Origin: Candidatus Hydrogenedentota bacterium
Lineage (GTDB): Bacteria; Hydrogenedentota; Hydrogenedentia; Hydrogenedentales; CAITNO01
Direction: 5' to 3'
NCBI GenBank assembly: GCA_019455225.1
Contig: JACFMU010000010.1
Location: forward strand, 975-64,974
DNA: 64,000 nucleotides
The position numbers and the translations under genes are program-made. The notes under the pieces were generated by a model. It had not been told where the DNA came from and ran no database searches. It saw only the letters and a program-made list of their open reading frames with translations. This document shows, in pieces, positions 4,805-38,791 of this stretch. Numbering within the stretch: the first letter of the stretch is position 1; every line of letters begins with the position of its first letter.

Positions 4805-7800
4805 ATGGCTGAGGAAAAGGAGACGCGCGGAGAAAGCACCCGGCGCGAGTTTCTGCGGCAGAGCGCCGCGCTCGGATTTGCGGCGTTTGTCTCGCAGGGC
4901 GCGCGCGCCTGGGGACTGGACACGGCCGCCAACCCGCTGGACAATTACCCGGACCGGGACTGGGAGAAGGTTTACCGCGACCTGTTCCAGCACGACAGCA
5001 CCTTCACCTTTTTGTGCGCGCCGAACGACACCCACAACTGTCTTCTGACGGCGTATATGAAAAACGGGATTCTGACCCGGATCAGCCCGACCTACCGGTA
5101 CGGCGAGGCGTCTGATTTGGACGGGAACAAAGCGTCGCACCGGTGGGATCCGCGCTGCTGCCAGAAGGGCCTCGCGCTGGTGCGCCGTTTTTACGGGGAC
5201 CGCCGCGTGAAGGGGCCCTGCGTCCGCAAGGGCTTCAAGGAGTGGGTGGACGCCGGATTTCCGCGGGACGCGGTGACGGGCGCGCCGCCGGAGCAGTACT
5301 TCCGGCGCGCGGAAGACTCCTGGCTCCAGTTGTCCTGGGACGAGGTGTCGGAGATTTCGGCGAAGGCGCTTCACAACATCGCCGAAGCTTATTCCGGGGA
5401 GGAGGGGGCAGGGCGCCTCAAGGCGCAGGGGCATTATTCGGACGAGATGATAGAGACCTGCCACGGGGCGGGCACGCAGGTGCTCAAGTTCCGCGGGGGG
5501 ATGCCCCTGCTCGGCACGCGGATATACGCGATGAACCGCTTCGCCAACGGCCTGGCGCTGCTGGACAACCACATCCGGAAGACCGGGCCGGAGGGGTCGT
5601 TCGGCGGCCGGGGATGGGACAGCTACTCGTGGCACACGGACCTGCCCCCGGGGCATCCCATGGTCACGGGCCAGCAGACGGTGGACTTTGACCTGTGCTC
5701 CGTGGAGCACTCCAAAATGGTCATCGTCTGGGGGATGAACTGGATTTGCACCAAGATGCCCGACAGCCACTGGCTGACGGAGGCCCGGATGAAGGGCGTG
5801 AAGGTGGTCGTCATCGCCTGCGAGTACAGCGCCACGGCGTCCAAGGGGGACGAGGTGCTTGTGGTGCGCCCGGGGACCACCCCGGCGCTGGCCCTTGGCC
5901 TGGCAGGCGTGATCATGCGGGAAAACCTGCAGGACACGGACTATGTGAAGAAGTACACGGACATGCCGCTGCTGGTCCGGCTGGACACGCGCGCCCTGCT
6001 CAGCGCGCAGGATGTCCTGGGCGGCGAACCGGCGCCCCTGACGAACTTCACCAAAGTGTTCGGGAAAGACGAGACGCCCCCGCCGCCCGTCAGGCAGAGC
6101 ACCCAGTGGATTCCCAAGGAGATGCGCGACGCGTGGGGGGACTTCATCGCGTGGGACACCCGGGAAAACAGGCCCGCCAGGGTCACCCGCGACGATGTGG
6201 GCGAAAACTTCACGCAACTGGGCGTCGAGCCCGCGCTCGAGGGCCGGTTCCAGGTCACCCTGCAGGACGGTAGCACCGTGGAGGCCGCGCCCATTTACGC
6301 GCTCATCAAGGAGCACCTGGAGCGCAACTACAATCCCCAGACGAGCTCGGGGATCACCTGGGCGCCGCCGGAGGCCATCGAGAAACTGGCGCGGGAGATA
6401 GCGAAGAACGCGCGCGCGACCATGTTCCCGGTCGGAATGGGCCCCAACCAGTTCTTCAACAACGACCTGAAGGACCGGTCCGTCTTTCTCCTGGCGGCGC
6501 TCACGGGCAACGTCGGGAACATTGGCGGGAACGTCGGCAGTTACGCCGGCAACTACCGCACCGCCCATTTCAACGGGTACCCCCAGTTCATTTACGAGAA
6601 CCCCTTCGACATCGAGACGGACCCCGCGAAGCCCGCGCGCGTCAAGTCCTACTGGAAGGGCGAGTCCGCCCACTTCTTCAATTACGGCGACCGCGAGCTC
6701 CGCGTGGGGAACAAGAATTTCACGGGGAAGGGCCACACCCCCACGCCGACCAAATCGGTCTGGCTCTCGAACTCGAACTCCATCATCGGCAACGCAAAAT
6801 GGCATTACGACCTCGTCTACAACACGCTTCCCAAGGTGGAGATGCTGGCCGTGTCGGACTGGTGGTGGACCGCGTCCTGCGAGTGGGCGGACATTGTCTT
6901 CGGCGTGGACTCCTGGGCGGAGATGAAAAGTCCGGACATGACCGCGTCGGTGACCAACCCCTTTCTGACTGTTTTCCCGGACACCCCCCTTCCGCGCCTC
7001 TTCGACACGCGCGGGGACATGGAGGTGCTGGCCCTGGTCAGCGACAAACTTGCGGCCATCACCGGCGACACGCGCTTCAGCGACCTGTGGCGGTACGCGC
7101 ACGGCGGGAAAACGCAGGTTTATCTCCAGCGCATATTGAACATGAGCAACTCCGCGGCGGGATACCAGATAGCCGACCTGCTGGGGAGCGCCAAGGAGGG
7201 CGTCCCCGCGCTGATGATGACCCGGACCACGCCCAGGTCGGTGGGGTTCGAGCAGGTCCATGAAAACAGGCCCTGGTACACCAAAACCGGCCGCCTCACC
7301 TTTTACATTGACGAGCGGGAGTTCATCGAAAACGGCGAGAACCTCCCCGTGCACCGGGAGCCCGTGGACTCGACGTTCCATGAGCCGAACGTGATTGTGT
7401 GCGCGCCCGACCCGCTGCTGAACCCGCTAACCCCGCGGGACTGCGGGTTTGCGGAGGACGACCTCGGGGTTGAAACACGGCAGGGCCGCCACGTGATCAA
7501 GCGCTGGGAGGATGTCTCCAAGACCAGCCACCCCCTGATGAAAGACGGCTTCAAGTTCATCATGCACACCCCGAAGTACCGGCACGGCGCGCACACCACG
7601 CCCATAGACACGGACATCATCGCGGTGTATTTCGGCCCCTTCGGGGACATTTTCCGGCATGACACGCGCAAGCCCTTCGTCACCGAGGGGTATGTGGACA
7701 TCAACCCCGGCGACGCCCGTGAAATCGGGGTGGATGACGGCGACTATGTCTGGATTGACGCGGACCCGTCCGACAGGCCCTTCCGAGGCCAGACCGCCGG

Positions 7801-10353: not shown

Positions 10354-10933
10354 AGACAGCCCGTACGCGAAACTGGTTGGGGACGCGGCGGCCTACCGCC
10401 TGTTTTCCCTTGTCTTTCAGCCGCCGCATCCGGACCTGCCCGCGCAGATTGCCGCGCTGGGCCGAGAGGTCCGGGGGCCCGTGGCGGAATTGCCGAAAGC
10501 ATGCGGCAGCATGGATATGGAGGAGTATCACTTCATCCTCGGCCCGGCGGGCGGATGCTCCCCGTGCGAGTCGGAGTACCTCGGCGACAAGCTTGGGGGC
10601 AAGGGAAGCCTCATGGCGGATGTGGCGGGTTTTTATGACGCGTTTTCCTTTCCCCGCGACGCCGACACCCAGGAGAGGGTTGATCACATTGCGGTCGAGC
10701 TTTCCTTCATGAGTTTTCTCCTCCTCAAGACGGCCTATGCCGCGCACCGCGGCAACGCCCCCGGGGTGAACGTGTGCGCCGATGCGGGGGTCAAGTTCGC
10801 AAAGACCCATTTGCTGCCCTGGCTCAACCCCTTTCGGGAAAGGCTTGACACCGTGGCGCCCGGCTCGTTCTATGCGCGGGCGGCAACGGTGATGTGCGGC
10901 TGCCTGCCGGATGGATTCGGAACGGGTGACTGA
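10310..10933 (+). CDS. NarJ/TorD-family redox enzyme maturation chaperone (delta subunit)
   Basis: All-helical ~200-aa ORF overlapping the gamma gene stop. It is in the canonical position of the NarJ/EbdD/NxrD assembly chaperone. The start could also be GTG 10340. Confidence 0.7.
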   Translation: MPPTPKAGTAVDNIKDSPYAKLVGDAAAYRLFSLVFQPPHPDLPAQIAALGREVRGPVAELPKACGSMDMEEYHFILGPAGGCSPCESEYLGDKLGGKGSLMADVAGFYDAFSFPRDADTQERVDHIAVELSFMSFLLLKTAYAAHRGNAPGVNVCADAGVKFAKTHLLPWLNPFRERLDTVAPGSFYARAATVMCGCLPDGFGTGD

Positions 10934-12150
10934 TGCTGACTGACTGTCTGACTGGAATACGCCCCAAGCCCCGCACGGTCAAAGGCAAACCGTGGCCGGG
11001 GGGGATTTCCTTTGGCCGGGGGGAATGGTCGGGCGCATTTGGAGACATCGGCACGGACCTTCCCCTGCTGGTGGGCGTCATCCTGGTTTCCGGCATGGGT
11101 CCGGGGCGGGTGCTGCTGGTGTTCGGGCTGGCGCAAATCCTCTCCGGCCTGGTCTACCGCATGCCCATGCCCGTGCAGCCCCTAAAAGTTGTTGCGGTCC
11201 TGGTGATGGCCCAGGGCCTCCAGGGCAATGTGATCGCGGGCGGGGGACTCGCCATCGGGGTGGTCATGCTCGCGCTGACACTCACCGGCGCGCTGGACTT
11301 CCTGGCGCGGCTGGTTCCGGTGCCGGTGGTGCGCGGAATTCAGTGCGGACTGGGCGTCAAGCTGGCGCTGCTTGCCGCGGGGGACTATGTCATCGGCCAT
11401 GGCGCGCCGGGCATCCTTATGGCGTTTGCCGCGGTGCTGCTGCTGCCGGTGATGACGGGCCGCCCCAAGATTCCCGCATCGTTGGCCCTTCTGGCGTTGG
11501 GCGCGGCGGCGGCATGGCTCGGCGGGGCCGCCAACGGGGCCGGATGGCAACTGCCGCCGGCGGTTCAGCCGTGGTCCCTTCCGTCCACGGCGGACATCTG
11601 GGCCGGTTTTATCCTGCTGGCGCTTCCCCAGATTCCCCTGTCGCTGGGCAATTCAGTGCTTGCGACGCGCGAGCTGGCCATGGACTGGTTTCCCGAAGCC
11701 CGTGTGTCCGCCAAAAAAATCGGGTTCACGTATTCGCTGTTCAATATTGCCATCGCCTTTGTCGGCGGTGTGCCGGTGTGCCATGGGGCGGGGGGCATCG
11801 CGGGGCATTACGCCTTTGGCGCCCGCACCGGGGGTTCCGTGATTGTCTACGGTGGGTTCTTTGCGCTGCTGGGCGCCTGCGCGCTTCTCGGGCTGGGAAA
11901 TGTTCTGGCGCTGTTTCCGCTCCCCATATTGGGTGTGATTCTGGCCCGGGAAGGGCTCGCGCTCATGGGAAGGGTGCGGGGACTGGGGCATGACCCGGCG
12001 GCGCTGGCCACCGCGCTCCTCGTGTGCGTGCTGGCTGTGTTTCTTGCCAACGGGTTCCTGGCGGGCATGGTCGCCGGAACGCTCTTTTTTTGGGCATGCC
12101 GCAGGATGAGCATGCCCGGCGCCGCGTTGCCTGAAACGGAAACAGAGTGA
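10933..12150 (+). CDS. Polytopic membrane transporter, possibly MOT1/SulP-related molybdate transporter
   Basis: About 12 predicted TM segments. The N-terminal motif GAFGDIGTDLPLL resembles the GDLGT-IPI signature of MOT1-family molybdate transporters. It lies between the molybdoenzyme and Moco genes. Confidence 0.45.
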   Translation: MLTDCLTGIRPKPRTVKGKPWPGGISFGRGEWSGAFGDIGTDLPLLVGVILVSGMGPGRVLLVFGLAQILSGLVYRMPMPVQPLKVVAVLVMAQGLQGNVIAGGGLAIGVVMLALTLTGALDFLARLVPVPVVRGIQCGLGVKLALLAAGDYVIGHGAPGILMAFAAVLLLPVMTGRPKIPASLALLALGAAAAWLGGAANGAGWQLPPAVQPWSLPSTADIWAGFILLALPQIPLSLGNSVLATRELAMDWFPEARVSAKKIGFTYSLFNIAIAFVGGVPVCHGAGGIAGHYAFGARTGGSVIVYGGFFALLGACALLGLGNVLALFPLPILGVILAREGLALMGRVRGLGHDPAALATALLVCVLAVFLANGFLAGMVAGTLFFWACRRMSMPGAALPETETE

Positions 12151-12159
12151 GGGGCGCGC

Positions 12160-13269
12160 ATGGGAACAGGTGCTGAGATTCAGATGGAAGACGCCGGGAG
12201 CCGGCTGGAACGGCTCCCCGTGGCGCTTGTCGCAGGACACAGCGGCTCCGGCAAGACGACGCTCATCGAGCGGCTCGTGCCCCGGCTGATTGCCGGCGGG
12301 CTGAGGGTGGCCGTTGTCAAGCATGACGCGCACGGGCTGAACCTGGACCATCCGGGAAAGGACAGCGACCGGTTTTTCCGCGCGGGCGCGGCGGTGCTGG
12401 CCGGGGGACCGGGCGAGACCTTTCTCCGCATGCCGGGCACATGGGATTTGGAGGACGCCGCGCGCCGTCTGCTGCGGTCGAATGACCTGGTGCTTGTGGA
12501 GGGGCACAAAAACACGCGGGGACCCCTAAAAATCTGGCTGCGCGGCGGGGGAGAGGACGCGCCGCCGCCGGAGGCCGGGGACGCCGTGATGTGTCTTGAC
12601 CGGAACGAGCCGCGCGTTGCGATTGTCCACCGTTTTCTTCTGGAGTGGCTGGCGCGCCAATGGCTGCGCACCCCCGTGCGGGCGGGCGTTCTCATCGGCG
12701 GGAAGTCCTCGCGGATGGGCTCGCCGAAGCATCTGCTCCGCCACGGGGGGAAAAGCTGGGCGGCGCGTGTGGCGGCGGCCTTCGCCGGACACGCCGACTC
12801 CATCGTCCTGCTTGGGGCGGGGGACGCCCCCCCAGAGTTGGGTGAGTGCCCGCGGCTGCCGGATGTGCCCGGGTGCGCGGGCCCCATTGCGGGCATGCGC
12901 GCGGCCATGCGCTGGGACCCGGACGCGTCATGGATATTCGCGCCCTGCGACATGCCCCTTCTCACACCGGAAACCGTCGCCTGGATGCTTGCTCGGCGGA
13001 AGCCCGGAAGATGGGCGGTGATGCCCCGCCAAAGCCGTCAGGAACCGGCCGAGCCGCTGTTTGCCTGGTACGACTTCCGCGCGGCGGAATTGATGGAAAA
13101 GGTGTTAGCCCCGAGGGAATTGGCCGGATGGTCCCGCTCCCACACCGCGCTGATCCCGGGCGCGTTGGGGCGGGCGCTGAAAAACATGAACACGCCGCAT
13201 GACGCCGAAGGGCTCAGGGGCGCCCAGGACGGCCGCAACGCCCCGGCGGCGGCCGCGGGAGGTTTCTGA
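12160..13269 (+). CDS. mobA: MobB-MobA fusion (molybdopterin-guanine dinucleotide biosynthesis)
   Basis: N-terminal MobB P-loop VALVAGHSGSGKTTLIERL. C-terminal MobA-like GVLIGGKSSRMGSPKHLL...FAPCDMPLL. Confidence 0.8.
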   Translation: MGTGAEIQMEDAGSRLERLPVALVAGHSGSGKTTLIERLVPRLIAGGLRVAVVKHDAHGLNLDHPGKDSDRFFRAGAAVLAGGPGETFLRMPGTWDLEDAARRLLRSNDLVLVEGHKNTRGPLKIWLRGGGEDAPPPEAGDAVMCLDRNEPRVAIVHRFLLEWLARQWLRTPVRAGVLIGGKSSRMGSPKHLLRHGGKSWAARVAAAFAGHADSIVLLGAGDAPPELGECPRLPDVPGCAGPIAGMRAAMRWDPDASWIFAPCDMPLLTPETVAWMLARRKPGRWAVMPRQSRQEPAEPLFAWYDFRAAELMEKVLAPRELAGWSRSHTALIPGALGRALKNMNTPHDAEGLRGAQDGRNAPAAAAGGF

Positions 13270-13270
13270 C

Positions 13271-13732
13271 ATGCGCAAACTGTCGCATTTGAACAGCCAG
13301 GGCCGCGCCGTCATGGTGGATGTGGGGAACAAGGAGGTCCAGCGGCGAAACGCCGTAGCCGGGGGGAAGATCCGTCTGGCCGGGGAAACGGTGGCGCTTA
13401 TCCGGGACAGTCTTCTGAAGAAAGGGGACGTTTTGTGTGTCGCGGAAATCGCGGGGATACAGGCGGCCAAGCGGACCGCCGGCTTGATCCCACTCTGCCA
13501 TCCGCTACCCCTGACGGACATCAAAGTGACCGCGACCCTGGAGGATGACGGGGTTAGGGTGACGGGGAGTGTGTCCTGTCTGGGGAGGACGGGCGTGGAG
13601 ATGGAGGCGCTCACCGCCGTCAGCGCCGCGCTGCTGACGGTGTATGACATGTGCAAGGCCGTTGACAAGCACATGGTGATCGGGGACATCGCCCTTTTGA
13701 AGAAGACCAAGCAACCGGCTGGAGGGCGCTGA
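13271..13732 (+). CDS. moaC: Cyclic pyranopterin monophosphate synthase accessory protein MoaC
   Basis: LSHLNSQGRAVMVDVGNKEV...GLIPLCHPLPL...VEMEALTAVSAALLTVYDMCKA is typical of MoaC. Confidence 0.85.
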   Translation: MRKLSHLNSQGRAVMVDVGNKEVQRRNAVAGGKIRLAGETVALIRDSLLKKGDVLCVAEIAGIQAAKRTAGLIPLCHPLPLTDIKVTATLEDDGVRVTGSVSCLGRTGVEMEALTAVSAALLTVYDMCKAVDKHMVIGDIALLKKTKQPAGGR

Positions 13733-24216: not shown

Positions 24217-24276
24217 GGGAACGCCAATCTCCCGATTGGCCCGCCATAAGATGCCAATCAGGAGATTGGCGTTCCC
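24217..24276. repeat. REPIN-like inverted pair of the 24-27-bp REP unit (GGGAACGCCAATCTCCCGATTGGC ... GCCAATCAGGAGATTGGCGTTCCC)
   Basis: Two units in inverted orientation separated by 12 bp. Each unit contains a 7-bp stem hairpin, GCCAATC / GATTGGC. Confidence 0.9.
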
Positions 24277-26872: not shown

Positions 26873-27916
26873 ATGAAACGCGGAAACGGCTTTACTCTCA
26901 TTGAACTGCTGGTGGTCATTGCCATTATCGGGATTCTTGCGGCCATCCTGCTGCCGGCGCTGGCCCGCGCGCGCGAGGCGGCGCGGCGCTCCAGTTGCCA
27001 GAACAACCTCAAGCAGTGGGGCCTGGTGCTGAAAATGTACGGCAGCGAGGCCAGGGGCGCCTTCCCCCCGATTCAGGCGGTGCGCGACCGGCGTCCCTTT
27101 GGCGGCGCCGTGGAGCTTGGGCTTGCGGCGGGACCCGCGGTCAACACCATCTATCCCGAATACCTTGCGGACCCCAACATTGTCCTGTGCCCCTCGGACC
27201 CGGGCCTGAGCACCCACCGGCAGGACCTGTATTTCCAGCCCGGCAACCCGGAGAACCAGCGGCCGGACACGCCCCGGTTCGCCTATGAGCCGACCCTCAT
27301 CTCCGCCAGCTACATGTATCTGGGGTATGCCTTCGACAACATCGTCCCCGCGGAGCGGTCGAACGCCTTCCTCATCACGCAGGTGTTCACGGCGCTGGGC
27401 GCCACGTTCACCGGCAACCCCTGGATGCCCATCCAGATGGCCGGCGCCCTGGACGGACTGGTGGACCAGGCCGGCGGAATTGGCGCAATCGCCGGACTGG
27501 CCGGCAACCCCTTCGCCCTGGCCGCCGCGCTCGACCGGGACGCGGACATCAGCCGCGGCGGCCGTCCGGGATACGGCAACGGCGGCGGCAACACGGTATA
27601 CCGCCTGCGCGAGGGCATCGAGCGGTTCCTCATCACGGACATCAACAATCCCGGCGCGTCGAATGTGGCGCAGAGTTCCCTGTTCATCATGATGGACACC
27701 ATCTCCTCCGGCACGACCGAGGCCCTGTTCAACCACATCCCCGGCGGCTGCAATGTGCTGTACATGGACGGCCATGTTGAGTTTCTGCGCTACGTCCCGG
27801 TTCCCGGCCTGGAAGGCGCCGGCTCCTCCGCCGAGGCGACCCAGCGTCTGCGCGGCGGGAACTCCCCCGTGCTCGCGACAGTGGCCACGGTGGTCGCCGG
27901 CATCATGGGCGGATGA
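26873..27916 (+). CDS. Prepilin-type N-terminal cleavage/methylation domain + DUF1559 (H-X9-DG) protein
   Basis: N-terminus [31 protein letters not shown]-terminal [11 protein letters not shown] motif. This family is massively expanded in Planctomycetota and Verrucomicrobiota. Confidence 0.85.
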
Positions 27917-27944: not shown

Positions 27945-28037
27945 AACTGGGAACGCCCTTCCTGGGAACGCCCTTTCTGGGAACGCCAATCTCCCGATTG
28001 GCTGTTTTAAGATGCCAATCAGGAGATTGGCGTTCCC
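27945..28037. repeat. REP cluster: two degenerate partial units followed by a full inverted REP pair
   Basis: ctgggaacgccctt, cctgggaacgcccttt, then a full forward unit at 27978, an 11-bp spacer and a reverse unit at 28014. Confidence 0.9.
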
Positions 28038-28134
28038 AGAAGAGTGCCGTTCCTAGGAGAGTGCTGTCCCTCTGGCAATGTCGCCGCCGGGGAGGGTATC
28101 ATGGTTGCCGGCAAAACAAGGGGATCCGGAATCC

Positions 28135-29868
28135 ATGTTTGAGCAAGTCTTCAAGAACGTTGACGATGTCCTGTGGAAAGAGGCCGGCTGCACCACGGAG
28201 CTGGACTACACCGAGCAGTCGTCGTGGCTACTTTTCCTGAAATACTTGGACGAACTGGAGCAGGACCGGGCAATGGAGGCGGAACTGGAGGGGCGGGCGT
28301 ATTCGTTCATACTCGACAGTCCGTACCGCTGGGAAAGCTGGGCCGCGCCCAAGGGTCCGGACGGGAAGGTTGACCACAACAGGGCGCTCACGGGCGACGA
28401 CCTGCGCGACTTCGTGAACCTGAAACTCTTCCCCTACCTGCACGGGTTCAAGCAGAAGGCCAGCGGGCCGAACACCATCGAGTACAAGATTGGCGAGATT
28501 TTCGGCGAGCTCAAGAACCGGATTCAGAGCGGCTACAACCTGCGCGAGATCATTGACCACATAGACGAACTGCGCTTCCGCTCGCAGACCGAGAAGCACG
28601 AGCTGTCGCACCTCTACGAGGCGAAGATCAGGAACATGGGCAACGCCGGGCGCAACGGCGGCGAGTACTACACCCCGCGCCCGCTCATCCGCGCCATTGT
28701 CCGGGTGGTGAAACCCAAAATCGGGGAAACCATCTACGATGGGGCCTGCGGCTCCGCGGGCTTCCTGTGCGAGGCTTTCGAGTATCTCAAAAACCCCGGG
28801 AACGACAATCCTGGGAACTACAATCTCCCGATTGGCTCGTCAAAATCTGCCAATCAGGAGATTGGCGTTCCCGGGGAAAGAGCCAATCAGGAGATTGGCG
28901 TTCCCAGGAGAAGCGCTACCGGGCTGAGCGTAAAAGACCTGCAAACGCTCCAGGAACGGACCTTCTACGGCAAGGAGAAGAAGAGCCTCGCCTACGTCAT
29001 CGCCATCATGAACATGATCCTCCACGGCATTGACGCGCCGAACATCCTCCACACGAACACGCTCACGGAGAACCTGGCCGACGTGCAGGAGAAGGACCGT
29101 TTCGACGTGATCCTCGCCAATCCGCCCTTTGGTGCCAAGGAGCGCAGGGAGGTCCAGCAGAACTTCCCCATCCGCACCGGCGATACCGCCTACCTCTTCC
29201 TACAGCACTTCATCAAGATGCTCCGGGCCGGGGGCCGCGCGGGCGTGGTCATCAAGAACACCTTCCTGTCCAACACGGACAACGCCTCCGTCAGCCTGCG
29301 CAGGCTGCTCCTCGAAAGCTGCAACCTGCACACCGTCCTCGACTGCCCCGGCGGCACCTTCTTGGGGGCGGGCGTGAAGACCGTCGTCCTCTTTTTCGAG
29401 AAGGGCGCGCCCACCCGGAAAATCTGGTACTACCAGCTCGACCCCGGACGCAGCCTCGGCAAGACCAACCCCCTCAACGACGACGACCTCGCCGAGTTCG
29501 TCGAACTGCAAAAGACCTGCGCCAACTCCCCCAAAAGCTGGACGGTGGACGCCGCGACCATAGACAAGACGACCTTTGACCTTTCCGTGAAGAACCCCAA
29601 CGGCGGCGAGGAGGTCATCCACCGCAGCCCGCTGGACATCTTGGACGAAATCGCCGCGCTGGACGCCGAAAGCGCCGAAGTGCTGGAAAACATCCGGGTG
29701 TTGCTCACCACCGACTCCGAAAACACCCCCTATGGGAACGCCTCCCCTGGGAACGCCAATCTCCCGATTGGCTCTTCTTCCTCCTCCACCCCTGAAAACG
29801 CCCATCACCCGGTTGGCGAACTGGGGGATGCCAATCGGGAGATTGGCGTTCCCAGGAGGGGAAAATGA
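28135..29868 (+). CDS. hsdM: Type I restriction-modification methyltransferase HsdM (N6-adenine), carrying in-frame REP insertions
   Basis: HsdM_N region (SWLLFLKYLDELE), motif I (YDGACGSAGFL) and motif IV (NPPFG). Repeat-derived peptides NPGNYNLPIGSSKSANQEIGVPGERANQEIGVP sit between motif I and the YGKE block. A second REP pair at the C-terminus precedes the stop. The stop overlaps the hsdS ATG (ATGA). Confidence 0.9.
   Translation: MFEQVFKNVDDVLWKEAGCTTELDYTEQSSWLLFLKYLDELEQDRAMEAELEGRAYSFILDSPYRWESWAAPKGPDGKVDHNRALTGDDLRDFVNLKLFPYLHGFKQKASGPNTIEYKIGEIFGELKNRIQSGYNLREIIDHIDELRFRSQTEKHELSHLYEAKIRNMGNAGRNGGEYYTPRPLIRAIVRVVKPKIGETIYDGACGSAGFLCEAFEYLKNPGNDNPGNYNLPIGSSKSANQEIGVPGERANQEIGVPRRSATGLSVKDLQTLQERTFYGKEKKSLAYVIAIMNMILHGIDAPNILHTNTLTENLADVQEKDRFDVILANPPFGAKERREVQQNFPIRTGDTAYLFLQHFIKMLRAGGRAGVVIKNTFLSNTDNASVSLRRLLLESCNLHTVLDCPGGTFLGAGVKTVVLFFEKGAPTRKIWYYQLDPGRSLGKTNPLNDDDLAEFVELQKTCANSPKSWTVDAATIDKTTFDLSVKNPNGGEEVIHRSPLDILDEIAALDAESAEVLENIRVLLTTDSENTPYGNASPGNANLPIGSSSSSTPENAHHPVGELGDANREIGVPRRGK
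28813..28905. repeat. Three REP units (1 forward, 2 reverse) inside hsdM coding sequence, frame preserved
   Basis: Variant forward unit CTGGGAACTACAATCTCCCGATTGGC, spacer TCGTCAAAATCT, then two GCCAATCAGGAGATTGGCGTTCCC units. Confidence 0.85.
29731..29853. repeat. REP pair (forward + exact reverse-complement unit) at 3' end of hsdM. The reverse unit abuts the hsdS RBS (gcgttcccAGGAGGGGAAAATG).
   Basis: Partial unit tatgggaacgcctcc, a full forward unit at 29747, a 57-bp spacer, and a reverse unit GCCAATCGGGAGATTGGCGTTCCC at 29830. Confidence 0.85.
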
Positions 29869-31007
29869 AAAAGGGGTGGGAGATTAAGACACTGGGCGAA
29901 GTGTGTGAAATCCTGGACCATAAGCGAAAGCCTGTTACCAAGCGGCACCGTGTTAGCGGTCAATACCCATACTATGGTGCAACCGGCATTCAGGATTATG
30001 TGGCCGACTATCTTTTTGATGAGCCACTTGTGTTGGTAGGTGAAGATGGCGCGAAGTGGGGGTCGGGTGAGTGTACGGCTTTTGCGGTAGAAGGAAAATG
30101 CTGGGTCAATAACCATGCTCATGTACTTCGACCATTTCGTGACATCGTCCTTGACAACTGGTTAATTCATTACCTAAATCATTCTGACTTGTCTGAGTAC
30201 GTGTCAGGCTTAACAGTTCCCAAGTTAAATCAAGGTAATCTTCGAGATATCCTCATCCCCCTCCCGCCCCTTGCCGAACAGCGGCGGATCGTGGGCATCC
30301 TCGACGAGGCGTTTGCGGGCATCGCCACCGCCAAGGCCAACGCCGAAAAGAACCTCCAAAACGCCCGCGCCCTCTTTGAAAGCCACCTGAACGCCGTCTT
30401 CACGCAGAAGGGCGAGGGATGGGTGGAGAGGAGGCTGGGGGATGTGTCAGAGGAGTTTGGGCGTGGCAAATCCAAGCATCGCCCACGAAATGATCCAAAG
30501 CTCTACGGCGGAAAATATCCATTTATTCAAACAGGTGATGTGCGTAACTGTGACCACAGAATTACAGCCTACACCCAAACGTACAATGCGATGGGGCTTG
30601 CCCAAAGCAAGTTATGGCCGAAAGGAACTCTCTGTATCACAATTGCAGCCAACATCGCGGAGACTGGTATTCTCGACTTTGACGCCTGTTTTCCCGACAG
30701 TGTCATTGGTGTCGTGGCGGATGAGAAGTCGACGAGCAATAAGTTTTTGGAATACCTTCTCCGAAGCTTCAAGACTCGGTTGCAAGCTCAGGGGAAAGGA
30801 AGCGCCCAAGACAACATCAACCTTGCCACTTTCGAAAATCAAGTTTTCCCATTTCCCGGAAGGCGGGTTCAAGACCAACTCGTCATTGAGCTCGACTCGT
30901 TACGAAAAGACACCCGCCGCCTCGAATCCGTCTACCAGCGCAAGGTTGCCGCACTGGAGGTGTTGAAGAAGTCGCTGCTGCATGAAGCGTTCACGGGGGC
31001 CTTATGA
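29865..31007 (+). CDS. hsdS: Type I R-M specificity subunit HsdS with two target-recognition domains of visibly lower G+C
   Basis: GWEIKTLGEVCEILD start. The central conserved helix is LPPLAEQRRIVGILDEAF...LFESHLNAVF and the C-terminal helix is ...LESVYQRKVAALEVLKKSLLHEAF. Both TRD-encoding segments are AT-richer than their surroundings. Confidence 0.85.
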   Translation: MKKGWEIKTLGEVCEILDHKRKPVTKRHRVSGQYPYYGATGIQDYVADYLFDEPLVLVGEDGAKWGSGECTAFAVEGKCWVNNHAHVLRPFRDIVLDNWLIHYLNHSDLSEYVSGLTVPKLNQGNLRDILIPLPPLAEQRRIVGILDEAFAGIATAKANAEKNLQNARALFESHLNAVFTQKGEGWVERRLGDVSEEFGRGKSKHRPRNDPKLYGGKYPFIQTGDVRNCDHRITAYTQTYNAMGLAQSKLWPKGTLCITIAANIAETGILDFDACFPDSVIGVVADEKSTSNKFLEYLLRSFKTRLQAQGKGSAQDNINLATFENQVFPFPGRRVQDQLVIELDSLRKDTRRLESVYQRKVAALEVLKKSLLHEAFTGAL

Positions 31008-32053
31008 CGCAGGAAAACACCGCTCCTGGGAACGCCAATCTCCCGATTGGCTCTTCAAAATCTGATGCTTCGACCCGGAGGGAAGAGGCCAATCGGGAGA
31101 TTGGCGTTCCCCGGAGGGAAGAGGCCAATCGGGAGATTGGCGTTCCCAGGGGGGAAGAGGCCAATCGGGAGATTGGCGTTCCCAGGGGGGAAGAGGCCAA
31201 TCAGGAGATTGGCGTTCCCAGGGGTGGCGTTCCAAGGGAGGAGGATGACGGAGAGGGCCGGTGGCGCAGCCGGGGTTATTTGCCGCATTTTGATAAGGCG
31301 GAGCGCGCGCAGCATGTGACGTTCCATTTGTCGGACAGTCTGCCGTGGCATGTCCTGAAACGGATGGAGGAGGAGGTCCGCGGATTGCCTGAGGATAAAC
31401 GGGATGTGGAACGGCGCAGGAAAGTGGAAAACTGGCTGGACGCGGGACATGGCTCGTGTGTGCTGCGTGTGCCGGAGGTCGCCCGGAAGGTGCAGGAGTC
31501 GCTGCTCTTTTTCGACGGACAGCGGTACCGCCTCATCGCGTGGGTGGTCATGCCAAACCATGTGCACACGCTTTTTGAACCGCTGCCCGGCTGGTCACTG
31601 AACAAGATTGTCGCGTCGTGGAAGAAGTTCACCGCGCGGATGATCCGCGATTATGAACGGGCGCATCCTGGGAACGGTCCTGGGAACGCGGATCCTGGGA
31701 ACGCCAATCTCCCGATTGGCATCTTCAATACGGCCAATCAGGAGATTGGCGTTCCCAGAGGAGAAGTTCCCGAGAAAATAAACGGGGTTTGGCATCGTGA
31801 GTTCTGGGACCGGTATGTCCGGGATGAACGGCATTTCGAGCGGGTGGTGGAATATATCCACGGGAATCCGGTGACGGCGGGGCTGGTGAAGGTGGCGGAG
31901 GATTGGCCGTGGGGGAGTGCGGGGGTGATTGGAAGGGCCAATCGGGAGATTGGCGTTCCCAAGGAGGAGGCTCCTCGGGGTGAGGGTGCCGGGGAAAGAG
32001 CCAATCAGGAGATTGGCGTTCCCAGGGAGGACGTTCCCAGGGAGGAGGAATAG
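31004..32053 (+). CDS. REP-associated tyrosine transposase (RAYT; IS200/Y1 HuH family). The core is about 31262-31934. The ORF is extended at both ends and interrupted internally by in-frame REP units.
   Basis: WRSRGYLPHFDKAERAQHVTFHLSDSLP is a RAYT N-terminal signature. The HuH motif is NHVHTLF. The C-terminal motif is EFWDRYVRDERHFERVVEYIHGNPVTAGLVKVAEDWPWGSA (Tyr motif plus NPV...DWPW). No IS ends are present. It is flanked by REPs, and its ATG overlaps the hsdS stop (ATGA). Confidence 0.75.
   Translation: MTQENTAPGNANLPIGSSKSDASTRREEANREIGVPRREEANREIGVPRGEEANREIGVPRGEEANQEIGVPRGGVPREEDDGEGRWRSRGYLPHFDKAERAQHVTFHLSDSLPWHVLKRMEEEVRGLPEDKRDVERRRKVENWLDAGHGSCVLRVPEVARKVQESLLFFDGQRYRLIAWVVMPNHVHTLFEPLPGWSLNKIVASWKKFTARMIRDYERAHPGNGPGNADPGNANLPIGIFNTANQEIGVPRGEVPEKINGVWHREFWDRYVRDERHFERVVEYIHGNPVTAGLVKVAEDWPWGSAGVIGRANREIGVPKEEAPRGEGAGERANQEIGVPREDVPREEE
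31025..31219. repeat. REP array: one forward unit then four reverse units arranged as a 36-bp-period tandem repeat (31088, 31124, 31160, 31196)
   Basis: (GGAAGAG)GCCAATCGGGAGATTGGCGTTCCC(AGGGGG) x4 encodes the peptide repeats EEANREIGVPRG. Confidence 0.9.
31677..31766. repeat. Two degenerate partial units plus a full REPIN (forward, 12-bp spacer, reverse) inside the RAYT core ORF
   Basis: cctgggaacggt, cctgggaacgcggat, then CCTGGGAACGCCAATCTCCCGATTGGC ATCTTCAATACG GCCAATCAGGAGATTGGCGTTCCC. Confidence 0.85.
31937..32023. repeat. Two reverse-orientation REP units at 3' end of RAYT ORF
   Basis: GCCAATCGGGAGATTGGCGTTCCC at 31937 and GCCAATCAGGAGATTGGCGTTCCC at 32000. Confidence 0.85.
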
Positions 32054-32172
32054 GGGGTTCTGTCTCACTGGTGAGGCATTCCGGGGCTTTTGTCTCTTTT
32101 TTGCGGTATTTTGAGACGCAAATGGAATATGATTGAGTCTTTGGGGTGGATAATTCGCCCCATGGAGCGGTT

Positions 32173-34662
32173 ATGAATGAAGCCGAAACGAGAGCCGAGC
32201 ACATTGATCCCGCGCTGAAGGCGGCGGGATGGGGTGTGGTGGAGGGCAGCCGCATTCTCCGGGAGCACCGGATCGCGCCGGGACGGCTGCAGGGGGGCGG
32301 GAAACGGCACAAGCCGGAGATCGCGGACTATGTGCTGGTGTACCGCAACCTGAAGCTGGCGGTGGTGGAGGCAAAGCCCTGGGGCGCGCCGTACACGGAG
32401 GGGGTGGCCCAGGCCAAGGAGTACGCGAAAAAACTGGCCGTCCGCTTCACCTATTCGACCAACGGGCAGAAGATTTACGGGATTGACATGGAAACGGGCA
32501 AGGAGGGGGATGTCGCCGACTATCCCGGCCCGGAGGCGCTGTGGACGCTGACCTTTGCGGAGCAGAACGAGTGGCGGGACCGCTTTGCCAAGGTGCCCTA
32601 TGAGGACAAGGGCGGCAGCCACTGCACGCGCTATTATCAGGACATCGCCATCCAGAACGTGATGGAGGCGATTGCGGGCGGGGAGGAGCGGATTCTGCTG
32701 ACGCTGGCCACGGGCACCGGAAAGACCTTCATCGCGTTCCAGATCGCGTGGAAGCTCTTCCACAGCCGCTGGACCCTGAACCGGGACGCCCAGCGGCGCC
32801 CGCGCATCCTCTTCCTGGCGGACCGCAACATTCTGGCGGACCAGGCGTACAACGCCTTTTCCGCGTTCCCGGAGGATGCGATGGTGCGGATTGCCCCGGA
32901 GGACATCCGCAAGAAGGGGAAGGTGCCCAAGAACGGGAGTATCTTCTTCACCATCTTCCAGACTTTCATGTGCGAAAATGGCAACACGACCTCTGGAAAC
33001 GCACTGCCCGGGAACGCCAATCTCCCGATTGGCTCTTCCTCCCCTGGGAACGCCAATCTCCCGATTGGCTCTTCAAAGTCTGCCAATCAGGAGATTGGCG
33101 TTCCCAGGGAGGACATTCCCAGGGAGGACGGCCCCGCGTATTACTTCGGCGGGTACCCGCAGGATTTCTTTGACCTGATCATCATTGACGAGTGCCACCG
33201 GGGCGGCGCGAACGATGAAAGCAGTTGGCGGGGCATCATGGAGTATTTTTCGCCCGCCGTGCAGTTGGGGCTGACCGCCACGCCGAAGCGGAAGGAGAAC
33301 GCGGACACCTACAAGTATTTTGGCGAGCCGGTGTTCGTGTATTCCCTGAAGGACGGCATCAACGACGGCTACCTCACGCCGTTCAAGGTGAGGCAGATAT
33401 CCACCACGCTGGACGAGTATGTGTACACCCCGGACGATGTGCTGGTCGAGGGCGAGGTCGAACAGGGGAAGCGGTACACGGAGAAGGACTTCAACAAGAT
33501 CATCGAGATAAAGGAGCGCGAGGCGTACCGGGTGGGGCTGTTCATGGAGATGATTGACCAGCGGGAAAAGACGCTGGTGTTCTGCGCCACACAATTGCAC
33601 GCGCTGGCCGTGCGCGACCTGGTCAACCAGATGAAGTCCGCCAAGGACCCGGACTACTGCCACCGGGTGACCGCTGACGACGGGAAGCTGGGCGACCAAT
33701 GGCTGCGCGACTTTCAGGACAACGAGAAGAGCGTTCCGACCATCCTGACCACCTCGCAGAAACTCTCCACCGGGGTGGACGCGCGCAATGTGCGCAACAT
33801 CGTGCTGATGCGCCCCGTCAACTCGATGATCGAGTTCAAGCAGATCATCGGGCGCGGCACCCGGCTCTATGACGGCAAGGACTACTTCACCATATACGAC
33901 TTCGTGAAGGCGCACCACCATTTCAGCGACCCGGAGTGGGACGGGGAACCTGCGGAACCGACGGGGCCGACAATAACGCGCGTGAAAGAGGACCCGCCGG
34001 AACCGCCGTACCCCGGCCCGGAGCCCCCGGAACCGCGCAAGGAGAAAATTCGGATTAAACTGGCCGACGGGAAGGAGCGCGCCATCCAGCACATGGCGGC
34101 GACCACTTTCTGGAGCCCGGACGGCACGCCGATGTCCGCCGCCCAGTTCCTCGAAAGCCTCTTCGGTGCGCTGCCGGACTTCTTTAAAAACGAGGACGAG
34201 TTGCGGGCCATATGGAGCGTTCCGGACACACGGAAGGCGTTTCTCCAAGGGTTGGCCGACAGGGGCTTTGGCCCGGAGCCGATGGCGGAGATGCAGCGGA
34301 TAATTGACGCCGAAAAGAGCGACCTCTTCGACGTGCTGGCCTATGTGGCGTTTGCCATGCCGACCGTCACCCGCGCGGAGCGCGCCGCCGCCGCCAGGAC
34401 CCGCCTGCATGGGCGCTTCACCGCGAAGCAGGAGGCCTTCCTCGACTTTGTGCTGTCCCATTATGTGCGCCAGGGCGTGGAGGAACTGGACCAGGAGAAA
34501 CTGGCCCCGTTGATCAGGCTCCGCTACAACAACGCCGTGGCCGACGCTGTCGCCGACCTGGGCAAACCCCATGAAATCAGGCGGATTTTTACCGGGTTCC
34601 AGAAGTACCTCTACCAGCCCGCCCATGGCGGCACACATCGGTACGGTTTCGCCTCCGCCTGA
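32173..34662 (+). CDS. hsdR: Type I restriction enzyme R subunit HsdR (helicase/nuclease) with in-frame REP insertion
   Basis: N-terminal nuclease region (AETRAEHIDPALKAAGW...YVLVYRNLKLAVVEAK). Helicase motif I is LATGTGKTF and DEAH-type motif II is IIIDECHRG. The repeat-derived peptide ALPGNANLPIGSSSPGNANLPIGSSKSANQEIGVP lies between motifs Ia and II. Confidence 0.85.
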   Translation: MNEAETRAEHIDPALKAAGWGVVEGSRILREHRIAPGRLQGGGKRHKPEIADYVLVYRNLKLAVVEAKPWGAPYTEGVAQAKEYAKKLAVRFTYSTNGQKIYGIDMETGKEGDVADYPGPEALWTLTFAEQNEWRDRFAKVPYEDKGGSHCTRYYQDIAIQNVMEAIAGGEERILLTLATGTGKTFIAFQIAWKLFHSRWTLNRDAQRRPRILFLADRNILADQAYNAFSAFPEDAMVRIAPEDIRKKGKVPKNGSIFFTIFQTFMCENGNTTSGNALPGNANLPIGSSSPGNANLPIGSSKSANQEIGVPREDIPREDGPAYYFGGYPQDFFDLIIIDECHRGGANDESSWRGIMEYFSPAVQLGLTATPKRKENADTYKYFGEPVFVYSLKDGINDGYLTPFKVRQISTTLDEYVYTPDDVLVEGEVEQGKRYTEKDFNKIIEIKEREAYRVGLFMEMIDQREKTLVFCATQLHALAVRDLVNQMKSAKDPDYCHRVTADDGKLGDQWLRDFQDNEKSVPTILTTSQKLSTGVDARNVRNIVLMRPVNSMIEFKQIIGRGTRLYDGKDYFTIYDFVKAHHHFSDPEWDGEPAEPTGPTITRVKEDPPEPPYPGPEPPEPRKEKIRIKLADGKERAIQHMAATTFWSPDGTPMSAAQFLESLFGALPDFFKNEDELRAIWSVPDTRKAFLQGLADRGFGPEPMAEMQRIIDAEKSDLFDVLAYVAFAMPTVTRAERAAAARTRLHGRFTAKQEAFLDFVLSHYVRQGVEELDQEKLAPLIRLRYNNAVADAVADLGKPHEIRRIFTGFQKYLYQPAHGGTHRYGFASA
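32994..33105. repeat. REP units inside hsdR (two forward, one reverse, plus a partial)
   Basis: Forward units at 33008 and 33043, spacer TCTTCAAAGTCT, reverse unit at 33082. Confidence 0.85.
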
Positions 34663-37355: not shown

Positions 37356-38557
37356 AGGCGCTGTACTTCGAGAACGACCCGCCGCGCTACGCGCTCTACC
37401 GCGCGGCGCGGATGGTCCACCCCTTTCCGAGGCTCGGCCCGCTGTCCCCGGTGCGGTATGCCGAAGTGCCGGAGCCGTCGCCGCCCAACGGCCGCTGGCT
37501 TCTGGTGCGGAACACGGCCTGCGGCCTCTGCGGCACGGACATCCATTTCCTGCTGATGGACATGTCGCCGAAGAGCTACTCGGCGGCCCTGCCGGGGATC
37601 AAGCGCAAGTACCTGGGCCATGAGGCCGCGGGCGTGGTGGAGGCGGCGGGCGCGGAGGCGGACGGGTTCCAGCCGGGCGACCGGGTGGCCCTGCGGCTGG
37701 ACTGGCCCTCGTGCGCGCAAATGGAGATCAGCCCGCCCTGCGGCCCGTGCGCGGCGGGCAGTTACATGCTCTGCGAGAATCTGGGTGCCGCCCCCATGCC
37801 GGAGGCCGTGGGCGGCGGCTTCTCCCCCCGCATGGCGGTGCACCGCAGCCAGCCCTTCAAAATCCCCGGCAGCGTGGGCGATGACGCGGCGGTGCTGCTG
37901 GAGCCCATGGCCTGCGCGGTCCACGGCGTGCTGAAGGCGGCGGACCGTCTGGCGCCGGGCGCGCGGGTGCTGGTCATCGGCGGCGGCACCATCGGTCTGC
38001 TGGCGGCGGCGGCGTGCCGCGCCCTGGCCCCCGGCGTGGAGGTGTTCCTGTCGGCGCGGTACCCGTTCCAGGCGCGGGCGGCGGAGGCCCTGGGCGCGCG
38101 GGTGCTGGACGGCGGCGGAAAACTCTTTTCCCAGTCCGCCGCCGCCACGGGCGGGCGGCACGCGCGCGGCCTTTTCGGCAACGAGATCGTGCTGGGCGGC
38201 TTTGACGCGGTGCTGGACAGCGTCGGCGGCGGGGAGAGTTTCGGGCAGGCCCTGCGCCTGGCCCGCGCGGGCGGCATGGTCGTCCTGCTGGGCATCAACT
38301 TCGCCCCCGCAAGCCTGGACTACTCGCCCGTGTGGGCCCGCGAGGTGCTGGTGACGGGCATCAACTGCCACGGCACCGAGCGCGACGGGCGCAGCTCCTT
38401 TGCGGTGGCGGCGGAGCTGCTGGCGGGCCTGCCGGAACTCCCCGGCCTGCTCATCACGCACCGCTTCCCCATGCGGGAATACCGGAAGGCCGTCCGGGCT
38501 TTCATGGACAAAGGCAAATCCGGGGCGATAAAGATTGTGCTGGATCACGGGGAGTAA
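37352..38557 (+). CDS. Zn-dependent medium-chain dehydrogenase/reductase (ADH/sorbitol-threonine-DH-like)
   Basis: CGLCGTDIHF catalytic Zn motif, structural Zn cysteines (C..C..C...C), GHEAAGVV, and an Rossmann fold VLVIGGGTIGL. Confidence 0.8.
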   Translation: MKALYFENDPPRYALYRAARMVHPFPRLGPLSPVRYAEVPEPSPPNGRWLLVRNTACGLCGTDIHFLLMDMSPKSYSAALPGIKRKYLGHEAAGVVEAAGAEADGFQPGDRVALRLDWPSCAQMEISPPCGPCAAGSYMLCENLGAAPMPEAVGGGFSPRMAVHRSQPFKIPGSVGDDAAVLLEPMACAVHGVLKAADRLAPGARVLVIGGGTIGLLAAAACRALAPGVEVFLSARYPFQARAAEALGARVLDGGGKLFSQSAAATGGRHARGLFGNEIVLGGFDAVLDSVGGGESFGQALRLARAGGMVVLLGINFAPASLDYSPVWAREVLVTGINCHGTERDGRSSFAVAAELLAGLPELPGLLITHRFPMREYRKAVRAFMDKGKSGAIKIVLDHGE

Positions 38558-38570
38558 GGGGGATGTCTTC

Positions 38571-38597
38571 CCTGGGAACGCCAATCTCCTGATTGGC
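38571..38597. repeat. REP unit, TCCT-loop variant (CCTGGGAACGCCAATCTCCTGATTGGC)
   Basis: Direct match to the repeat family, 13 bp after the dehydrogenase stop. Confidence 0.85.
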
Positions 38598-38621
38598 ATC
38601 CATGAAACAGGAACATCCCCC

Positions 38622-38697
38622 GGCGCTAAAGCGCCACCCCCTTCGGAAGGGGGAATTTGTGGGCGCTTGAACTTTTTGGTTGCTGTTTTTTTTGCTG
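38622..38697 (+). terminator. Putative intrinsic terminator: two tandem GC hairpins followed by a T-rich tract
   Basis: GGCGCTAAAGCGCC and CCCCCTTCGGAAGGGGG followed by ...CTTTTTGGTTGCTGTTTTTTTTGC. This is the only strongly AT-rich segment in the region. Confidence 0.6.
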
Positions 38698-38723
38698 TAA
38701 TGGGTGTCACACTGGAAAGAAGA

Positions 38724-38791
38724 GCCAATCAGGAGATTGGCGTTCCCAGGAAGCCGCAATGGGAAGAGCCTATCAGGAGATTGGCGTTCCC
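38724..38791. repeat. Two reverse-orientation REP units (the second has a gcCTatc variant)
   Basis: GCCAATCAGGAGATTGGCGTTCCC at 38724 and CCTATCAGGAGATTGGCGTTCCC at 38768. Confidence 0.85.

Follow-up and report, generated by a model that had tools for sequence, protein, structure and literature searches.

The 64-kb stretch of DNA analysed here (hereafter the window; Candidatus Hydrogenedentota bacterium, contig JACFMU010000010.1, positions 975 to 64,974) carries four consecutive genes on the + strand, hsdM-hsdS-rayT-hsdR, in which a type I restriction-modification (R-M) operon encloses the gene of a tyrosine transposase of the REP-associated kind (RAYT). Units of a repetitive extragenic palindromic (REP) sequence were found in frame inside hsdM, the RAYT gene and hsdR. 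Gene order and REP positions recur in at least 30 genomes of at least seven phyla, indicating a module and not an accident, as had been proposed. The genes were identified by listing open reading frames (ORFs) and by Pfam and NCBIfam profile searches, which confirmed the gene order given in the original prediction (Table 1).

The R-M genes make up an intact EcoAI-family (type IB) operon, for which methylation and restriction activity are predicted. The hsdM ORF opens at 28078, and homology places the true ATG at the start already proposed, 28135 (MFEQVFKN...); motif I (ACGSAGFL) and NPPF (motif IV) are intact. The hsdR ORF opens at 32146, with the true ATG placed by homology at 32173. The HsdR product is identical to the NCBI protein P0001 (829 aa) and scored 794.7 bits on the EcoAI/FtnUII equivalog NF046051 (cut-off 550), and its nuclease residues D61/E75/K77 (D..EAK) and GTGKT, DECH, TATP and QIIGRGTR motifs are intact (all invariant columns of alignment A1). 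HsdM, HsdS and HsdR with all motifs, overlapping genes and variable HsdS target-recognition domains are shared with type IB (EcoAI) systems. The G+C content is 51-65% across the operon, compared with 65-75% in the flanks.

The ORF at 31004 had been taken for a RAYT, which is upheld by its score of 84.6 bits on NF047646 (REP_Tyr_transpos; cut-off 80). The HUH motif is present as PNHVH and the catalytic Tyr within YIHGNPV, and WRSRGYLPHF marks the start of the core; the HUH and Tyr motifs are retained in almost all relatives, and the sole PDB match is 4er8, E. coli TnpArep. The Y1 HUH transposase fold and motifs (Pfam Y1_Tnp) are shared with IS200/IS605 elements, whose hairpin ends are recognised in single-stranded DNA. 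Unlike in those elements, there was no sign here of a multi-copy autonomous element with ends around the transposase gene alone. Identity as an IS200 transposase was rejected (NF033573, 24.2 bits against a cut-off of 55). An Rfam scan of 23.5-39.5 kb gave no RNA-family match, and the promoter and terminator scan gave counts at chance, a weak terminator-like site at 32083 after the RAYT gene being given no weight.

Table 1. Genes and REP features of the window (positions in the 64-kb stretch)
Feature	Position	Strand	Remarks
Dispersed REP pair outside the cassette	24217..24276	.	
Left island border: tag-only 15-nt repeats CTGGGAACGCCCTTC x2.7, then inverted REP pair 27979-28037	27947..28037	.	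about 100 nt upstream of the hsdM ATG
hsdM, type I methyltransferase	28135..29868	+	Pfam N6_Mtase and HsdM_N; PADLOC MTase_I 525 bits
REP cluster in HsdM loop, in frame, encodes PGNDNPGNYNLPIGSSKSANQEIGVPGERANQEIGVP	28798..28905	+	one degenerate + unit (TACAATC stem), two - units
REP pair and decayed middle copy at hsdM 3' end	29734..29853	+	read through as HsdM C-terminal extension
hsdS, specificity subunit, two target-recognition domains	29865..31007	+	Pfam Methylase_S x2
RAYT (Y1/HUH)	31004..32053	+	NCBIfam NF047646; Pfam Y1_Tnp
REP array forming the RAYT N-terminus	31028..31238	+	one + unit, four - units, 36-nt period, then tag-only repeat
REP inverted pair and tag repeats inside RAYT, in frame	31661..31756	+	between HUH and Tyr motifs
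Two - REP units and tag repeats forming the RAYT C-terminus	31937..32046	+	C-terminal REPs conserved across cassettes
hsdR, EcoAI-family (type IB) restriction/translocase subunit	32173..34662	+	NCBIfam NF046051
REP cluster (+, +, - units, then tag repeats) in HsdR loop, in frame	33010..33129	+	between FQTFM and DECH box
Three dispersed REP units, intergenic	38574..38791	.	gap between stop at 38557 and ATG at 38838

The REP unit and its positions inside the genes

The REP unit has 24 nt, GGGAAC-GCCAATC-TCC[C/T]-GATTGGC, comprising a GGGAAC tag, a 7-bp stem and a 4-nt loop. Its 18-nt core GCCAATCTCC[C/T]GATTGGC preceded by GGGAAC occurs in 24 copies in the window, where 0.01 are expected from shuffles, with one further degenerate copy beside them. 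Seventeen or eighteen units belong to the operon; seventeen lie within hsdM, the RAYT gene and hsdR and one pair just upstream of hsdM (span 27979-33105), the remaining copies being located at 24.2 kb and 38.6-38.8 kb; the pair at 24.2 kb probably lies 5' of the real start of a peptidase-like ORF. The stop-free frames GNANLPIG and ANREIGVP of the original prediction were recovered, since all 17 intragenic units stand in phase 0, one strand encoding GNANLPIG and the other AN[R/Q]EIGVP, and the C-variant of the REP can be read without a stop in all six frames. The periods of arrays and spacers (36, 33 and 15 nt) are all divisible by three.

Inverted REP pairs (REPINs) fold to 23-bp stems with a single asymmetric mismatch (C.A; G.T on the other strand), with energies of -26 to -36 kcal/mol and z about -10 when folded as single-stranded DNA (-26.2 kcal/mol, z = -9.8 upstream of hsdM at 27979-28037; -26.1 kcal/mol, z = -10 inside RAYT; -35.6 kcal/mol, z = -9.9 in hsdR). 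With a short palindrome bearing an unpaired tag, dispersed copies and inverted doublets, the repeats are genuine REP/REPIN sequences, as the earlier reading had it. Tagged hairpins, inverted doublets with an asymmetric mismatch, a REP-flanked RAYT, HUH and Tyr motifs and dispersed, mostly extragenic copies are shared with the known REPIN-RAYT systems (E. coli TnpArep/YafM with REP/BIME; Pseudomonas Group 2/3). Three features differ from these: the REPs here are translated within RAYT and neighbouring genes, the RAYT lies inside a type I R-M operon, with which it co-diverges and which occupies different genomic places in different phyla, and the tag reads GGGAAC (GTTCCC in the opposite strand) and not GTAG or CGTC, which places the repeat outside the GTAG- and CGTC-tagged REP superfamilies defined in PMC3733652.

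In addition, hairpin-less tandem repeats of the tag alone (15-nt period; CTGGGAACGCC... / CGTTCCCAGGGAGGA) were observed on the outer sides of the REP clusters (27947-27987, 31210-31238, 31661-31704, 32017-32046 and 33101-33129), encoding ...PREDIPRED / VPREDVPREEE.

In HsdM, the REP cluster adds about 40 codons (query residues 239-284 against residues 213-217 of 5ybb) after motif I (ACGSAGFL) and before TFYGKE, where REP-free cassette relatives read KAKKNLTTKDL. In HsdR, the insert lies between FQTFM and YFGGYPQDFFDLIIIDECH (query residues 276-334 against 287-295 of 3h1t). This HsdR loop has 57 aa in the window, 21 aa in the closest homologue and 11 aa (SGPPKDGxPSP) in 99 of the 120 best homologues, ranging from 7 to 76 aa among homologues (76 aa in L037). 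Because the flanks align in the same frame, each HsdM and HsdR insert is a multiple of three. The alignments to 5ybb and 3h1t thus bear out the claim that the inserts sit between catalytic motifs, and comparison with REP-free homologues defined their boundaries and showed the frame to be kept. It was also considered whether the REP-free loop is itself a REP scar, GCCGAAGGACGGC being a mini-palindrome, and this was judged too speculative to claim.

Homologues of hsdM end in ...LL* with an ATGA overlap, while the hsdM of the window runs on for 53 REP-derived codons to its ATGA overlap with hsdS, in line with the predicted loss of the stop codon; in L009, a Hydrogenedentales relative, the same REP pair is present at the hsdM 3' end, the stop codon is retained and the pair is intergenic. 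AGGAGG adjoins the last GTTCCC, 6 nt 5' of the hsdS ATG. The overlap of the hsdS stop with the RAYT ATG (TTATGA) and the REP-encoded RAYT N-terminus were also found as predicted, no in-frame start codon being present between the N-terminal REP array and the RAYT core. The usual N-terminus of the RAYT family is M-x(4-8)-PGNANLPIG...ANxEIGxP-WHSRGYLPHF. With cognate REPs at 31028-31238 and 31937-32046, the RAYT gene is flanked on both sides, as in at least 30 related loci. Since the genes overlap, translational coupling is plausible. A 46-aa REP-encoded peptide searched against a set of 5.8 billion proteins gave no match.

The open frames through the repeats in the large genes were borne out in every particular checked, all catalytic motifs being intact. 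This makes it improbable that the R-M genes are pseudogenes or crippled, their frames being open only through a stop-free REP and a G+C-rich region. Although the REP lacks stops in all six frames, the inserts and spacers are all multiples of three (36-, 33- and 15-nt periods), frames of 838, 596 and 380 codons stand in a stretch of just 51-63% G+C, and HsdR reaches 794.7 bits on the EcoAI equivalog. Between hsdR genes of relatives in other phyla, amino-acid identity is 0.73-0.78 with a third-codon identity of 0.36-0.54 (saturated), which also argues against the original suggestion that the R-M system is partly inactivated. Decay finds some encouragement in broken related cassettes (a frameshift in L007; fragmented L046, L058 and L065) and in the unusually expanded REP arrays and 53-codon HsdM tail of the window copy. 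Inactivation may have occurred on the terminal branch.

The explanation as an artefact, either a mis-assembly of a metagenome bin or an ordinary protein motif GNANLPIG/ANREIGVP mistaken for a DNA element, is hardly credible. The window does come from a metagenome-assembled genome, and assemblers readily fail at short repeats: an independent assembly of another read set (Logan SRR27370451, L001) ends within REPs at both sides, breaking exactly at them. Over 29832-31053 the same assembly is 100% identical to the window, with both hsdS junctions exact, and dozens of assemblies made independently, megabase-scale contigs and complete chromosomes among them (e.g. L014, L022, L034), have the same architecture. 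As to the protein motif, the unit is a DNA palindrome that occurs elsewhere in non-coding DNA and in other reading phases.

In-frame intragenic REPs are themselves already on record, with helicases and an N-6 DNA methylase among the host genes, and REPs are also known to overlap the ends of RAYT genes (Di Nocera et al. 2013, PMC3733652), so the premise of the original prediction that REPs are by definition extragenic does not hold and overstates the surprise. With these REPs and with the Rickettsia palindromic elements (RPEs; Ogata et al. 2000, cited in PMC3733652), the repeats of the window share small in-frame palindromes, often as dimers or clusters of 20-80 aa, and hosts in DNA metabolism; as with RPEs, the inserts are multiples of three, the host ORF is kept and insert-free homologues exist. 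Unlike there, the genes decorated here are the RAYT's own operon partners, and the sites are shared across phyla, with sequence-perfect units homogenised within a cassette.

The cassette in other genomes

A RAYT-core scan of one-genome-per-species contigs returned 394 relatives, the best 80 of which form the basis of the locus counts. The order hsdM-hsdS-RAYT-hsdR was present in 33 of these 80 loci, from at least seven phyla. Taxa with an embedded RAYT comprise Acidobacteriota, Bacteroidota, Chloroflexota (Anaerolineales, Caldilineaceae), Hydrogenedentota (Hydrogenedentales), Lentisphaerota and Victivallales, Nitrospirota (Nitrospirales) and Syntrophia-type Deltaproteobacteria (Smithellaceae, Syntrophus). 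The same gene order with overlapping genes was seen in L002/L003, L004, L206 and L207, and Y1_Tnp-hsdR only in L208.

Five REP sites are shared: the loop between motifs I and II of HsdM, the N-terminus, interior and C-terminus of RAYT, and the HsdR loop before DECH. The HsdM loop is REP-occupied in 13 further loci (L002, L004, L007, L009, L031, L033, L034, L036, L044, L047, L052, L059, L075), the RAYT interior in seven (L002, L007, L009, L021, L024, L026, L034), and the HsdR loop in ten (L002, L004, L010, L021, L026, L031, L034, L036, L037, L039) as well as in the homologues P0016, P0020, P0035, P0052, P0055, P0085 and P0107. HsdR homologues of other organisms carry shorter inserts with the same peptides in the same loop, and REPs just upstream of hsdM also occur in several other cassettes.

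A Y1_Tnp gene was found immediately upstream in all five REP-bearing HsdR contexts examined, and none beside the hsdR of the REP-free relatives P0002, P0003 and P0009, where the slot between hsdS and hsdR holds Fic (P0002), an M78/PIN-like pair or nothing; the slot of L005 is filled by M78/PIN-like genes. A cargo slot at this place is shared with type I loci bearing accessory genes, from which the present operon differs in that the cargo is a RAYT with its DNA sites inside the R-M coding sequences. Separately, the two closest HsdR homologues, P0002 and P0003, which lack the REP insert, have a Cys-rich insert of about 40 aa (repeated CxxC / CxC) in the linker before the C-terminal EcoEI_R_C domain (alignment A1 columns 617-670). 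In L007 (Acidobacteriota), a second RAYT-like copy lies upstream of hsdM (5963-6805), and hsdR has a 1-nt frameshift (11400-11500) and a REP-free loop, unlike near-identical L002.

The embedded RAYTs occupy one large inner clade of a neighbour-joining tree, with more distant RAYTs outside R-M operons. At L053, L060 and L030 a RAYT is present, the R-M genes are gone and an hsdS or hsdM remnant lies upstream; such remnants of the hsdS 3' end or the HsdM N-terminus at non-embedded loci indicate secondary loss of the R-M genes. At L053 and L060, the remnant is an out-of-frame translation of the hsdS 3' end, and at L030 (9857-10648) the RAYT ORF opens with an HsdM-like N-terminus (MFEQSLKNI). Some RAYT ORFs among L021 590-1435, L008 1966-2787 and L010 7285-8181 start with a copy of the HsdR N-terminus (MNEAET...). 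Read in this way, the hsdR, hsdM and hsdS remnants at RAYT ORFs appear as traces of the RAYT joining and later leaving the operon. The neighbourhoods of 13 RAYT loci outside R-M operons had no common theme; about 1 kb downstream at L017 (11403-12948), on the other strand, a Dcm-like cytosine methyltransferase gene and a Vsr-like gene were noted from N-terminal motifs only.

The distances of RAYT and HsdR correlate at 0.67-0.73, compared with 0.63-0.70 for within-gene controls; the transposase gene thus co-diverges with hsdR as closely as parts of one gene do. The flanks of 44 cassettes (2.8-10 kb) shared almost nothing, even where hsdR is 84-90% identical at the nucleotide level, and homology between cassettes spans exactly hsdM start to hsdR stop, breaking only at the hsdS target-recognition domains. 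Judged from these comparisons, the four genes evolve and relocate together as one cassette. Neither an integrase nor long flanking repeats nor target duplications were identified, the RAYT and REPs being the only mobility-related features. R-M systems are reportedly selfish mobile units, a view associated with Kobayashi and co-workers, and the cassette shares with these its compactness, unrelated chromosomal positions and deviating G+C.

According to the published account, RAYTs are passed on vertically and do not occur on horizontally transferred elements, and REPINs are almost exclusively extragenic (Bertels & Rainey; bioRxiv 10.1101/2021.07.10.451892). With a cassette of lower G+C, a spread over at least seven phyla and unrelated flanks, the RAYT of the window does not appear to have been inherited vertically at a fixed locus, and the cassette does not accord with the view that mobile DNA never carries these transposases. 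The searchable literature (subscription-only papers being outside its scope) yielded no description of a type I R-M operon that encloses a RAYT; while in-frame intragenic REPs were known before, the conserved RAYT/R-M cassette appears to be the new part.

The REPs within the cassettes are conserved at the nucleotide level and evolve in concert. The exact 24-mer GGGAACGCCAATCTCCCGATTGGC is present at orthologous sites in cassettes of different phyla (24/24 identical), between which the synonymous sites are saturated. REPs at different sites of one cassette differ by 1.71 nt, and those at the same site of different cassettes by 2.69 nt, a within-cassette similarity reached by none of 2000 permutations. 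A derived variant with 33 nt inserted in the hairpin was found at several sites of one cassette; this variant (peptide GNATSAPSRGVSGMNLPIG) occurs in L206, L207 and P0052 in the HsdM loop, the RAYT C-terminus and the HsdR loop, and the 33 nt look like a small element nested in the REP and co-copied with it. Gain or loss is also seen: between L007 and L002, which share about 90% nucleotide identity across the 3' 1.5 kb of hsdR, the HsdR loops are set apart by a 63-nt REP doublet. In L038 (Smithellaceae; HsdR loop within 10573-13368), another repeat family (SFDKLRTNG; TLRSFDKLRTNG...AQGERN...ELVEPQ) occupies the same loop, which points to an independent insertion at one site and therefore suggests a loop that tolerates or favours insertions and has received them repeatedly. 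The REPs were also tried as recombination breakpoints and rejected, since the across-site correlations (M1-M2 0.70, R1-R2 0.68) did not fall below the within-segment control (0.63).

Origin and possible roles of the RAYT and its REPs

The observations are best accounted for by an R-M cassette of type IB that is mobile and houses a RAYT; the active REPINs of this RAYT would lie in permissive loops, kept in frame by selection on the R-M genes, the RAYT and REPINs hitch-hiking on the cassette. We put the probability of this reading at roughly 60%. The RAYT gene is flanked by cognate REP hairpins, as for all RAYTs, and these are translated as the RAYT N- and C-termini because the genes overlap and leave almost no intergenic space. 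Further REPINs would have been seeded a short distance away, in one length-variable loop each of HsdM and HsdR, where presumably only in-frame stop-free REPs survive because the R-M genes are under purifying selection. The units would be kept "live" at the nucleotide level, probably through RAYT-dependent copying or replacement, and for this reason would show no differences between phyla and be homogenised within a cassette. Presumably the dispersed copies in the host genome, most of them extragenic, are serviced by the RAYT as well. Most likely the RAYT/REPIN pair is a passenger on an R-M cassette that is addictive and spreads horizontally, and has no part in restriction itself.

Several points weigh against this explanation. 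The REP pair substitutes for 13-15 nt of the REP-free loop and is no clean insertion. The loops are presumed to lie on the protein surface; the AlphaFold2 model of HsdR (14-sequence alignment) was too poor to map them, with a mean pLDDT of 38. RAYTs of the same clade also occur outside R-M operons, and HsdR-loop REPs are absent from many RAYT-bearing cassettes, indicating that an adjoining RAYT is not sufficient. No transfer carrier was found, as PLSDB plasmids and IMG/VR viral contigs were without RAYT relatives; seven viral contigs bear the REP, none of them with cassette genes. That the REPs inside genes are strictly conserved in nucleotides and recur at the same two loops may just as well reflect a function in the operon, and methylation, restriction and RAYT cleavage are all predictions from sequence.

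Functional integration, with the RAYT and the in-gene REPINs as a working part of the R-M system, is considered unlikely, although more probable than the other alternatives. It may take three forms. Strong hairpins of mRNA or single-stranded DNA in hsdM and hsdR could adjust the R:M ratio while the cassette becomes established in a new host; the RAYT could excise REPINs from the two loops and re-insert them, as an on/off or modulatory switch; or the HUH nuclease could be a defence effector in the hsdS-hsdR slot. In favour of functional integration as a whole are the conservation of REP sites and gene overlaps across phyla, that of REP nucleotides despite saturated synonymous sites, the presence or absence of a REP doublet between the cassettes of about 90% identity, and the Fic or DUF2513/M78/DUF4411 (M78/PIN) cargo that fills the slot in sister operons. 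The host function of RAYTs is acknowledged to be unclear and a role in defence has been speculated (PMC5581495), and other R-M and methyltransferase genes bear the same REP or relatives of the RAYT. Against it, many cassettes without HsdR- or HsdM-loop REPs have intact genes, REP sites gave no excess recombination signal, the RAYT had no match among the PADLOC defence families at E <= 0.01, RAYTs of the clade outlive R-M loss (L053, L060 and L030, with hsdS or hsdM remnants), and most REP copies are dispersed and extragenic, as in ordinary REPIN systems.

A broader proposal is tentative and, in our estimate, has somewhat under one chance in three: the RAYTs of this clade, with their REPINs, would belong integrally and under selection to the mobile type I R-M cassette, with the cassette as horizontal vehicle, and/or would control the R-M genes. 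If so, the cassette would deliver the RAYT with compatible REPINs to new genomes and seed new REPIN populations there, or the R-M genes would be controlled, e.g. by reversible gain and loss of REPINs in the HsdM and HsdR loops or by a hairpin-tuned R:M balance. How RAYTs benefit their hosts (PMC5581495) and how REPIN-RAYT systems spread to new lineages (bioRxiv 10.1101/2021.07.10.451892) are open questions, for which a RAYT clade co-diverging with an R-M cassette in at least seven phyla offers a concrete system. It suggests testable answers to both, namely an addictive, spreading R-M cassette as the vehicle that brings a RAYT and compatible REPINs into new hosts, and a RAYT role connected to defence.

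The cassette is, moreover, a natural experiment on the tolerance of a type I methyltransferase and translocase for foreign peptides, the inserts between motifs I and II of HsdM and just before the HsdR DECH box reaching 57 aa in the window and 76 aa in L037, and it is a case in which selection on the repeat at the DNA level and on the host ORF at the protein level act on the same nucleotides.

REPs and RAYTs outside the cassette

The exact 24-mer was found in at least 120 metagenome stretches, for which the locus counts refer to 80 loci with 82 REP sites. No cassette genes were present at 77 of the 80 loci, and no ORF spans the site at 70 of the 82 sites. Only four sites are genuinely intragenic (L086 5171-5237; L091 1847-1870; L123 1059-1082; L132 3321-3344). 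Three of these four lie in unrelated DNA methyltransferase genes, one Type ISP/MmeI-like and two N6_N4_Mtase; these metagenome intragenic REPs are read in other phases (ERQSPDW, QSGDWRS, GTPISRL), with no RAYT nearby.

Some RAYT relatives share one long ORF with other genes, as observed in P0225 (L210 952-2781), P0205, P0196 and P0247. P0205, P0225 and P0196 are DUF1156/D12-type adenine methylases, P0196 also with AAA_21. In P0225, the methylase sequence resumes past the RAYT, which is nested in frame with REP-like flanks, while P0205 and P0196 have a different flanking repeat (peptides GARASRPQ / KRAGRPRS), and in P0247 a Metallophos domain is joined to the RAYT. An affinity of the family for DNA-methyltransferase and defence genes (REPs in three methyltransferase genes; RAYTs nested in DUF1156 methylases) points the same way as the proposal of an integral or controlling role in R-M cassettes.

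Next to the island in the window, the gene just upstream (26873-27916) has a prepilin-type N-terminus by eye, and two aminotransferase-like ORFs lie downstream of hsdR at 34.8-37.4 kb.

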